DNA from: Leptospira sp.
GTDB taxonomy: Bacteria; Spirochaetota; Leptospiria; Leptospirales; Leptospiraceae
Direction: 5' to 3'
Length of the DNA stretch: 25,145 bases
NCBI GenBank assembly: GCA_034439575.1
Contig: JAWXAQ010000026.1
Span: forward strand, 1 to 25,145
The first letter of the stretch is position 1; every line of letters begins with the position of its first letter. The position numbers and the translations under genes were made by a program. This document shows, piece by piece, positions 20,957-22,823 of the stretch. Under the pieces are notes generated by a model that did no database searches, was not told the DNA's origin, and was given only the letters and a program-made list of their open reading frames with translations.

Positions 20957-21006
20957 TAAAATAAAATTGTATCGCTAAATTACCGTTATATCAAATAATA
21001 AATATA

Positions 21007-21189
21007 CTATATCCTATTTTCCAATTCAAGAGACTGATTTTTTGCAAGGTCTAATTCGTTACTTGTTCCAAATATTCCATACTTACTTAATAAAATTGAG
21101 GCTATAATAAGATCATTTGGAACAATTGAGAATCCTTTTGATCCTAAATGGAAACAAATTTCAGAATAGATATCGGATTCAACTTCATT
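21007..21189 (-). pseudogene. vapC: 3' remnant of a VapC (PIN domain) toxin gene
   Basis: My translation NEVESDIYSEICFHLGSKGFSIVPNDLIIASILLSKYGIFGTSNELDLAKNQSLELENRI* matches the VapC C-terminal pattern Y..I...L..KG..IGPND..IA...L......T.N...F......ENW with decay. The 5' half is absent. Confidence 0.75.
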
Positions 21190-21351
21190 CGATTAGGCTA
21201 CACGACCCTGTCCATAACTGAGTCTGTATCGCAGGTCTTAGCGTCGGCGCGTCTTCATGCAGAGCAAGAAGCGGGACGGAGGACAATGTGCCTTTAGGCC
21301 GAGCGAGGGCCGGGGTCCCCGAGCGTAGCGTGTCAGCCGTTGTTATACGCC
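21190..21351 (-). mobile_element. attC-like recombination site (integron gene-cassette type)
   Basis: On the minus strand, the R''-like box GGCGTATAAC contains the upstream gene's TAA. L''-like GGCTGACACG (21338-21329) pairs with L'-like CGTGTAGCC (21204-21196) with one unpaired base. The interior is GC-rich. The R' end has lost its GTT at the junction with the vapC remnant. Confidence 0.7.
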
Positions 21352-22215
21352 GTGGCGTTCCTGAATAGTATTCAATATATAAGATATCCATGGACCATTT
21401 TTTGATTTGCCATCAAAGGAAATGTATCCATTAGATTTGTAAGAATAATCAACTCCCCACATTCCGTTCTCATTCTTTTTTTTGTTGATGTAGTCTATTG
21501 AATCTTGGACTCTTGAGTCTTTTCCATACTTAGTATTTGTAAGAAACCAGAGCAATTCAAGAATTGTAATGTTGTAATTTTCTGGAAAGTATAAATCTAA
21601 AATATGGGGAGAGATAGGATTCTGATTAGTTAATCTTTTATATAGATGATGCTGAAGAATATAATCAATTCCCTTATCAATTGTAAATTGTATGCTATCA
21701 TCAAATTTGAATTTGTTATATTCATGTAGAGCGAGAATCGATTTTGTCAAGCCGATATAACAAGGAGTTGATTTGAGGCAACCGCCATGCTTAAGAATTT
21801 CTTTTTCATTCCAAATTGATTTGTGGAATCTCTCAAAAGATTGGTATTTTAGAATCCACATAATTCCATTTTTGACAATCGGATTTGAATGAAGACCTAA
21901 TTTGCAAAATGCTTTTATTAAGATAGCGTTATAGCACGGTAATAAATTTTCCTTTTTTCCAGTGTATGAAAAACCTTCAGACGTTCCAAGATTATTCAAG
22001 ATTAATTCTATTAAATTTTTTGTGTAAGGTAACCGTGATGAATACGGGATTTCACTAAGAGCAATTATTCTCCAAATTAGGAAGAAAAGGTTATCATTGA
22101 TTTCAAGTGTTAATTTTTGAACTAATTTGGATTGATAAAGTAATGAATCTATTTCAGTTTCTGAAATATTTATTCCTTTATCATGTTTTATTCTTAATTC
22201 TAAGGCTGTATCCAT
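21343..22215 (-). CDS. Cassette-borne hypothetical protein, terpene-cyclase/prenyltransferase-like alpha-alpha barrel
   Basis: LLPCYNA..IKAFCKLG, GIMWILKYQ, HGGCLKSTPCYIG, GIDYILQHHLY, FPENY...ILELL, NGMW, GKSKNGPWIS. Start is ATG 22215 or TTG 22224. The fold assignment is from motif memory only. Confidence 0.75.
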   Translation of the reverse strand: MDTALELRIKHDKGINISETEIDSLLYQSKLVQKLTLEINDNLFFLIWRIIALSEIPYSSRLPYTKNLIELILNNLGTSEGFSYTGKKENLLPCYNAILIKAFCKLGLHSNPIVKNGIMWILKYQSFERFHKSIWNEKEILKHGGCLKSTPCYIGLTKSILALHEYNKFKFDDSIQFTIDKGIDYILQHHLYKRLTNQNPISPHILDLYFPENYNITILELLWFLTNTKYGKDSRVQDSIDYINKKKNENGMWGVDYSYKSNGYISFDGKSKNGPWISYILNTIQERHGV

Positions 22216-22243
22216 TTTGTTCAATCAAAATTAAAGGTTAAAA

Positions 22244-22280
22244 CGTTATGGCGTATAACGAGTTTACTATTGTTATGTGT
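22244..22280 (-). mobile_element. Cassette 5' boundary (R'-like core site) with collapsed upstream att remnant
   Basis: Minus strand ACACATAAC-AATAGTAAACTC-G|TTATACGCCAT. GTTATACGCC (22259-22250) is exactly complementary to the GGCGTATAAC box at the gene's 3' end. Confidence 0.65.
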
Positions 22281-22823
22281 ATAAATACTCTCAGCAGGCG
22301 TTTTATAGAACACCAATAAATTCTCTCAAATGAGTTTTTATCGCCTTCCAATAAAATCCGAACAGTAATCCAAAATATTACATCATACGTTTTACAGATA
22401 TTATACAATATTTTAGAAATTTATTTATAAGAAAAATATGTTTTCAATATTTTTTAGCATAATCTATATGCTATTAATTTTTTAATTCAGATATCTTTCT
22501 GCAAAGTGGATATAAAACAATTCCCTACGTCAGGTTATTGGCTCTCGACAAATGTTCAAAAGATATTTCAAATTATTTTCGTTATTTAAAATAATTAGCA
22601 AACATGGATATATTTCAATTCCAGCACATTCATTGAATGATTCAGAAGATTGCCAAATTGAATATTTCAAGGCTCGACACCGATGCTTGTCTTACCTTAT
22701 CCACAATTTCAAAATAAAAAAATATAGATTTAATTCAAAAAGAATACGAATTAAAACATTGCCAATAATTTTCATTTAGTTCATATTTATCTTTAGAAAT
22801 ATTGCATTAAGGATAATCGTTAC

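Follow-up and report, generated by a model that had tools for sequence, protein, structure and literature searches.

A Leptospira gene cassette that probably belongs to a family-wide, integron-like recombination system

Introduction

How does DNA laid out like an integron cassette come to stand in a Leptospira genome that lacks a canonical integron integrase, and to which system would it belong? The question is raised by a stretch of 25,145 nucleotides from Leptospira sp. (GenBank assembly GCA_034439575.1, contig JAWXAQ010000026.1, forward strand), referred to here as the window, in which an open reading frame (ORF) lies between complementary boxes and is followed by a GC-rich element. A preliminary description of this DNA proposed an integron-like gene cassette with an unusually long attC-like site, one member of a dispersed, lineage-specific system moved in trans by a tyrosine recombinase encoded elsewhere. 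Integrons are defined by the integrase IntI, whose extra domain recognises extrahelical bases in the folded attC site. The comparative analysis reported here indicates that positions 21190-22259 of the window, read on the minus strand, are probably one cassette of an integron-like site-specific recombination system that extends through the Leptospiraceae.

The ORF is encoded on the minus strand (21343..22224 from a TTG codon, with an ATG at 22215), so that the proposed layout holds in the minus orientation. With the strand thus corrected, all its parts are present: the complementary boxes, the stop codon inside one of them, the GC-rich element of ~160 nt and its outer arms. In gene orientation, box GTTATACGCC occupies plus-strand positions 22250-22259 and ends 34 nt ahead of the ATG, while box GGCGTATAAC occupies positions 21342-21351 and includes the TAA stop (21343-21345); the plus-strand letters themselves read GGCGTATAAC at 22250-22259 and GTTATACGCC at 21342-21351. 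The GC content is 0.545 across positions 21200-21399 as against 0.22-0.33 in the flanks. The outer arms GGCT-G-ACACG and CGTGT-AGCC pair except for a single additional base. Scanned for promoter consensus sequences, the window gave no match on the minus strand from 22259 to 22215, the 34-nt leader included, in keeping with the promoterless 5′ boundary of the preliminary description.

Repeat family and cassette arrays

The genome that contains the window (G000) holds four strong copies of the element, each behind a gene end as had been predicted. These are the window copy, a copy behind a hicA/hicB-like gene pair on C36, and two copies in tandem on C15, each after an antitoxin-PIN pair. Weaker, divergent or truncated copies are found on C21, C13, C2 and C11. 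A covariance model (R1) was built from the four strong copies and searched across the genus, represented by 40 other genomes, and the family. It finds matches in 39 of these 40 genomes and in six of 14 genera of the family, five of them beyond the genus Leptospira. The matches in relatives number more than 1000, and the counts for single genomes are mostly lower bounds. Going by the names on database records, many named saprophytes of the genus carry the element family. In two further large genera of the family (g25 and g26), R1 gives fainter but numerous matches, with E from 1e-8 to 1e-27, in 20 of 22 and 23 of 24 genomes, respectively; given these matches, related sites may exist beyond the saprophyte-like genus.

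The complete genome G007 carries 109 matches, 107 of which lie on one strand within 124 kb (C1:2286645-2410651) at a spacing of ~1 kb. Arrays in G016 and G035 span 55-65 kb. The lineage-specific system that the preliminary description foresaw is thus family-wide, and within the genus it consists mainly of huge tandem arrays rather than of dispersed copies.

The content of the arrays was analysed in 32 cassettes. In every one of them the longest ORF runs in the direction of its site, and cassette length ranges from 662 to 4421 nt. The Pfam families encountered include MazF/PemK, BrnT, Fic, HEPN, two SIR2-like proteins, TIR, two HNH nucleases, Eco57I/MmeI-type restriction-modification, an M78 peptidase with a helix-turn-helix domain, a GNAT acetyltransferase and an IS481 transposase; for 14 of the 32 cassettes there is no Pfam family at E<=1e-5. 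Such cargo is typical of chromosomal integrons. The first ORF of the G035 array (L055 2598-3539) looks, by its sequence motifs, like a defence-type reverse transcriptase.

Co-variation of cassette boundaries

Every site ends in the conserved sequence ..GCCTAGTTCG, followed by TTAT... The 18 nt starting at the G of ..GCCTAGTTCG were compared with the 18 nt ending in the AAC of the R″ core, taken as reverse complement, in 32 consecutive site pairs from the arrays of G016, G035 and G007 with sites anchored by model position. The tail of one site matches the R″ flank of the next site at a mean of 15.41 of 18 positions (29 of 32 pairs reach at least 14), and at 8.56 of 11 when only positions 8-18 are counted. 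The same tail compared with the R″ flank of its own site (n=36) gives 9.92/18 and 3.92/11, values close to those obtained with the flanks of all other sites (n=1228; mean 10.08/18, maximum 16; 4.05/11 at positions 8-18). Positions 1-4 of the array boundaries are constant and positions 5-18 follow the next site. Each gene of an array is thus flanked by its own inverted 18-nt boxes, the outcome expected of circular units (TTAT..-ORF-site..G) that enter and leave the array by exchange at one fixed position of the 3′ core.

The co-variation includes a fixed exception. Position 11 is mismatched in 32/32 array pairs and the mismatch is A versus G in 31/32, so that the coding strand has an A.C mismatch there and its complement a G.T wobble. 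In an alignment of 47 sites the partner of position 11 is an invariant C (47/47) and position 11 itself is A in 42/47.

The window cassette follows the same rule, with 15/18 matches overall, 8/11 at positions 8-18 and A versus G at position 11. The rule also holds in the three other cassettes of G000 and in two lone cassettes of G007; all six tested outside the main arrays, the window cassette included, score 14-16/18. A 10-bp inverted pair by itself could be a product of chance. For the window pair we argue otherwise, because the match extends to 15/18 while the runner-up within 3.5 kb upstream reaches only 10/18, because other cassettes obey the same rule, and because the element belongs to a repeat family. 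The cassette-by-cassette co-variation of the flanking boxes that the preliminary description called for is therefore seen in the 32 array pairs and in the six cassettes elsewhere.

These data also bear on another explanation, a miniature transposable element that has terminal inverted repeats and whose insertions fall behind genes. Such an element would be multi-copy, would possess inverted outer arms and could be dispersed as in G000. The two ends of a site, however, match each other at the shared core only, as do those of unrelated sites, and the specific match spans the gene. Moreover, all 107 copies in the G007 array lie on a single strand at ~1 kb spacing, and no target duplications are seen at the junctions inspected. 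We regard this explanation as barely credible.

Structure of the site

The window site measures ~160 nt from R″ to the crossover point and the array sites are ~10 nt longer, which bears out the view that the site is longer than a classical attC; the family as a whole ranges from 160 to 175 nt. The attC-type cores AAC and GTT are present: all of 47 aligned sites have TAAC, and 45 of them have GTTA. Folding of the consensus by RNAalifold was combined with an alignment of the 47 sites, which come from four genomes. In this alignment 95.2% of the cells pair as against 77.5% in shuffles, and none of 500 shuffles reaches the observed value. Compensatory changes are found in 30 of 43 pairs. Sliding the partner by 1-3 columns lowers the pairing to 28-48%. 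By our own count the 47 sites hold only 13 G.U cells among ~1860 paired cells, a scarcity that would fit a DNA fold better than an RNA fold.

Junctions were folded with ViennaRNA using DNA parameters, with mononucleotide shuffles as control. For the computed circular junction of the window cassette, the bottom strand folds at -37.2 kcal/mol (z -3.1) and the top strand at -31.8 kcal/mol (z -2.3), an advantage of 5.4 kcal/mol for the bottom strand. The fixed A.C / G.T asymmetry of the R stem may serve the role that extrahelical bases have in classical sites.

A structured RNA or a repetitive extragenic palindromic (REP)-like repeat, acting as a 3′ stabiliser or terminator and spread by duplication, could likewise be GC-rich, have a conserved fold and lie always 3′ of genes, the boxes being there by chance; the absence from G000 of the recombinase family that is linked to the arrays (see below) would also agree with it. 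Set against this is the co-variation of 18 cassette-specific nucleotides across the ORF, which cannot come from a role in RNA. G.U pairs are nearly absent, the window has no Rfam match anywhere at gathering thresholds, there is no terminator-like T run, and arrays begin next to a recombinase gene, at a defined boundary. An origin of this kind is very unlikely. Both the transposable-element and the RNA explanations were rejected on account of the co-variation across the gene, the one-strand arrays, the missing Rfam match and the small number of G.U pairs.

Candidate recombinase

A tyrosine recombinase of 363-376 aa is encoded downstream of nadB in G016, G035 and G007. In four genomes (G016, G035, G020 and G026) it lies immediately upstream of the first cassette and on the same strand, with the first site 1-2 kb downstream. 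The first boundary box follows the recombinase stop, where an integron would have its attI site, at ~120-155 nt in G016 and at ~75 nt in G035, and it agrees with the R″ flank of the first site at 17/18 and 16/18 positions, respectively. The junction of the first cassette is purine-rich in these two genomes (..GGA/GTTAT, the slash marking the crossover) as against ..TTCG/TTAT in attC sites, a comparison that covers two genomes only.

The closest solved relative of the recombinase is VchIntIA (2a3v), with a sequence E of 5.8e-40 and, by fold, an E of 1.7e-15 at 32% identity. The catalytic residues R-K-H-R-H-Y are kept in 40 homologues, and each of the 40 other genomes of the genus has one homologue (E<=1e-40). 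The N-terminal ~70-78 residues of the two proteins P0001 and P0002 (L056:1186-2277 and L055:1267-2370) are confidently modelled as a beta-beta-alpha repeat domain. This domain scores 27.3 bits against the Pfam family HARP (cut-off 25) in one recombinase and 21.7 bits in the other. HARP is a domain known from annealing helicases and is unusual on an integrase-like enzyme. Public records label these proteins as 'recombinase XerC' or 'tyrosine-type recombinase', and a protein identical to the G016 recombinase is found in a record named Leptospira sp. 'Mane'.

The array-linked recombinase was not found in G000 (E<=1e-40), where the best match is 33% identical. Since nadB of G000 sits inside a 335-kb contig and is directly followed by a convergent gene, this absence is not due to a contig break. 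No protein exceeds the cut-off of the integron-integrase model TIGR02249 in G000 (best 84 bits against 265) or in the five relatives examined. The recombinase encoded elsewhere that the preliminary description postulated thus has an IntI-like candidate that abuts arrays in four genomes and is missing from the genome of the window.

G000 does encode a paralogous recombinase, P0242 on C11, which scores 231.3 on the model NF040815 ('XerA / integron integrase', cut-off 220). At its locus (C11:40691-47218; L070 4692-11219) it is followed by antitoxin-PIN cassettes on the same strand, and the array reaches the contig end. Two short sites of ~65 nt in this array (~L070 8128-8200 and 8757-8830) carry the family core and, by our own reading, obey the boundary rule (18/20, A versus G at position 11). 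Homologues of P0242 with 51-59% identity are present in 18 of the 40 other genomes. The tyrosine recombinases of G000 that come nearest all lie on contigs other than that of the window, and P0242 could act on the window cassette in trans.

A second GC-rich repeat family was observed at the same locus. Its members are ~100-290 nt long and have long inverted ends (..CAAACCTCGTTCCCATC ... GATGGAAACAAGGTTTG..); it begins directly after the stop of the C11 recombinase (L070 5602-5750, 6541-6833, 8822-9056 and 10312-10602). G000 has ~25 dispersed copies, found also on C35, C8, C30, C33, C22, C17, C7 and C28.

Points against the proposed system

A number of observations weigh against an integron-like system with the enzyme described above. 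The case is wholly comparative, and no recombination event has been observed. The alignment of the 47 sites was fitted to the R1 model and favours structure. In its chromosomal state the window site folds like mononucleotide shuffles (z +0.1 and +0.4). Strict RYYYAAC is found in just 5/47 R″ cores, the commonest being GCATAAC (20) and GTATAAC (16); that the boxes are not strict had already been stated in the preliminary description. The unpaired base of the L arm is present in all four G000 copies, but sites of the G016/G035 type have a 9-bp L stem that lacks it. The 3′ junction of the window cassette is non-canonical (..GCCTAATCG/AATGAAG).

For the enzyme, the recombinase stays under every curated integron-integrase cut-off, with 189.7 on TIGR02249 against 265 and 210.7 on NF040815 against 220. 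It has 31 residues where VchIntIA has 62 for the IntI-specific insertion, and its AlphaFold2 (AF2) model shows just a 4-residue helix at this position. In G007 a distance of 1.84 Mb separates the recombinase from the array, whose start has no recombinase gene beside it, so that the link between enzyme and arrays is based on adjacency in four genomes only.

A further point concerns the genome itself. The runs that contain window DNA are metagenomes (22 candidate runs, all as contigs, with no RNA run among those listed), and G000 seems to be metagenome-derived. In run X4 the depth is 225 over the bin of the site (window 21252-21372) against 14 over the flanks, a ~16-fold difference, and the R″ box (21346-21354) is continued by no fewer than six different sequences. 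The sampled community accordingly contains many more cassettes with near-identical sites than G000 does, and arrays may have escaped binning. G000 probably under-represents its own arrays. Its low number of copies, and perhaps the absence of the recombinase too, may come partly from binning. The earlier statement that no intI is present stands for G000 in the sense that no canonical intI is found there; as a statement on the organism, 'integrase-less' is weakened by the metagenome origin. Neither a circle joint nor an empty-site joint was found in the contigs of four public runs, and contigs cannot reveal rare forms.

Comparison with known systems

The system most resembles the sedentary chromosomal integrons, such as the Vibrio superintegron (see also Cury et al. 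2016, PMC4889954). Shared features are arrays of >=100 co-oriented and mostly single-gene cassettes, similar sites typical of the species, inverse cores ..AAC / GTT.. with the boundary inside the 3′ core, a cargo of toxin-antitoxin and defence genes, and a tyrosine recombinase nearest to VchIntIA. In contrast to chromosomal integrons, the Leptospira recombinase is without about half of the IntI insertion, fails the curated cut-offs and has a HARP-like N-terminal domain of ~78 aa. The Leptospira sites are 160-175 nt long and have a conserved, branched fold in place of a variable middle, their R stem of ~18 bp is cassette-specific with a fixed wobble or mismatch, and the recombinase can be up to 1.84 Mb away.

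Among spirochaetes, the abstract of a 2013 paper (PMC3607928) names Treponema as the sole clade with integrons, and a passage in PMC4889954 has the Treponema integron integrase reading in cassette direction. Going by these descriptions, the Leptospira system is similar in its spirochaete host and in a recombinase read in the direction of the cassettes. It differs in that the Treponema elements are described as having true integron integrases. A literature search found no paper on integrons, attC sites or cassette arrays in Leptospira; supplements of surveys may list them as integrase-less clusters.

Such clusters of attC sites lacking integron-integrases (CALIN), or single attC sites, are defined for IntegronFinder in PMC4889954. 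The window resembles them, with an attC-like site and no integron integrase in the window or in G000, as does the G007 array without an integrase nearby. Unlike them, the Leptospira sites exceed the classical length, and the formal class requires a match to the IntegronFinder attC model.

The fourth comparison is with Xer/dif modules and archaeal XerA-like enzymes. A Xer-like recombinase might exchange the 18-bp inverted boxes as double-stranded DNA, with the GC-rich body acting as an insulator, a terminator or an RNA element. Indeed, inverted core boxes flank the genes, the recombinases score almost as high on Xer models as on integron-integrase models and lack the IntI insertion, they score on NF040815 (210.7 for the nadB-linked enzyme, 231.3 for that on C11), and two cargo homologues retain boxes without a GC-rich body. 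However, exchange between duplexes gives no reason why position 11 should be fixed as A versus G (31/32), which favours the pairing of one strand, and the 30/43 compensatory pairs with only 13 G.U among ~1860 suit folded DNA. The body stands always between R″ and R′ and hence would belong to a folded site. In addition, no dif-like site of ~28 bp with two arms or central region was identified; the boxes flank a folded body of 150 nt instead. Duplex exchange of this type is therefore improbable, if less so than the two explanations rejected above, and the integron-like system is preferred.

The window cassette and its cargo

The features of the window locus are listed in Table 1. From their sequences, the locus is best understood as a decayed relic of two cassettes, in which an intact cassette is followed by a truncated vapC cassette; this decay accounts for the non-canonical 3′ junction. 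Aligned with the full-length vapC genes of four genomes, the remnant shows a mean column identity of 74%. One of the four, G003, has the gene as a complete cassette inside an array, and the other three also have it. Because R′ is damaged, the present-day mobility of the window cassette is doubtful.

Table 1. Features of the integron-like cassette and its neighbourhood in the window.
Feature	Position	Strand	Remarks
Cassette 5′ boundary, cassette-borne half of the recombination core	22242..22259	-	Reads GTTATACGCCATAACGTT; 15/18 identical to the reverse complement of its own R″ flank
Cargo ORF, 290 aa + stop	21343..22215	-	(alpha/alpha)6-barrel protein according to the predicted model
R″ core GTATAAC (TAA stop inside) and cassette-specific flank	21342..21359	-	TAAC invariant in 47/47 aligned sites
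L″ arm GGCTGACACG, one unpaired base	21329..21338	-	Helix 1: 94.7% of cells paired, compensatory change in 6/9 pairs
Branched conserved centre of the site, helices 2-8	21205..21328	-	RNAalifold and 47-site alignment
L′ arm CGTGTAGCC	21196..21204	-	Pairs with the L″ arm
R′ remnant TAATCG (family: TAGTTCG)	21190..21195	-	Sequence beyond is not TTAT..
3′ part of a vapC/PIN toxin gene, cut at the attC junction	21007..21189	-	Apparent remnant of the next cassette
Degenerate R″-like box GATATAAC behind the vapC remnant, site body apparently lost	20985..20992	-	Counterpart in the alignment: ..GCATAAC box of the G003 cassette

Directly upstream of the cassette boundary, in minus orientation, positions 22260-22285 read ..ACATAAC-AA-TAGTAAACTCG/ and resemble an R″-like box abutting an R′-like end. 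Judged by eye, this may be the collapsed site of a former upstream cassette. The genes bordering the cassette region are on different contigs or replicons in relatives, and the nearest genome of the genus has ~77% DNA identity over the flanks.

The 290-aa cargo protein has no Pfam or NCBIfam family. It has 287 homologues spread over distant phyla, the nearest being 69% identical (L. wolbachii), and a few of them have PF13243. The AF2 model has a predicted local distance difference test score (pLDDT) of 94. In a Foldseek search of the PDB it is weakly similar to alpha/alpha toroids (GH76, complement thioester domains and terpene cyclases), all at E>=2e-3. The protein is encoded in only two of the 40 other genomes of the genus, G021 and G007, on different replicons and in different contexts, which goes against synteny and vertical inheritance across the genus, the finding that by the preliminary description would have spoken against a cassette system. 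The homologues in G021 and G007 have remnants of R boxes at their ends and no GC-rich body. The boxes (GTTATGCG.. and ..GCATAAC) are located at ~1480-1500 of L084 (G021:C12) and at ~1503-1521 and ~2410-2425 of L085 (G007:C2). These copies are cassettes that have lost their site or retain no more than its cores. The cargo gene is accessory and has moved.

Proposed mechanism and implications

In the proposed mechanism a cassette extends from the crossover point in one site (..TAGTTCG/TTAT..) to the crossover point in the next. It contains a co-oriented ORF followed by an attC-like site of 160-175 nt composed of R″, L″, a branched body, L′ and R′. In the circular form the first ~18 nt of the cassette would pair with its own R″ flank and close a long stem, which would contain a G.T wobble if formed by the bottom strand and an A.C mismatch if formed by the top strand. 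As in integrons, a tyrosine recombinase would use the folded bottom strand as its substrate, excising cassettes as circles and inserting them. The strand may be chosen through the asymmetry at position 11, with or instead of the unpaired base of the L arm. The candidate enzyme is the IntI-like recombinase encoded after nadB and read in cassette direction, which has the HARP-like N-terminal domain and no full IntI insertion; the N-terminal domain might read branched DNA. The pair of cassettes in the window is stranded and decaying in G000 and could move only by a recombinase acting in trans, for example the product of the XerA/IntI-like gene that heads the small C11 array.

A wider proposal is that the Leptospiraceae possess an unrecognised class of chromosomal integron, and here the arguments for and against seem to us about evenly balanced. 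In this class the integrase would be without most of the signature domain of IntI and would have acquired, at its N terminus, a HARP-like domain of the kind that binds forks or junctions. The attC sites of the class would be 160-175 nt long, with a conserved multi-branched fold and a cassette-specific R stem of 18 bp, and the G.T/A.C asymmetry, not extrahelical bases, would select the strand. The arrays would exceed 100 cassettes and be rich in toxin-antitoxin and anti-phage genes, and the integrase could be megabases away.

Arrays of integron architecture, with up to 107 cassettes in 124 kb, are distributed family-wide, also among saprophytic species that by their database names are in wide laboratory use, and the recombinase associated with them is without the extra domain of IntI. 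If the proposal is true, Leptospira would be a naturally occurring system in which to study how the recombination of integrons arose from that of the Xer type. If the system is active, it would widen the concept of the integron and represent a second solution to the recognition of strand and site. Genome annotation would have an explanation for hundreds of 'intergenic GC-rich repeats' and for genes entered as 'recombinase XerC'. An active system would also mean that Leptospira contains a large and as yet unexplored stock of cassettes with defence and toxin-antitoxin genes.

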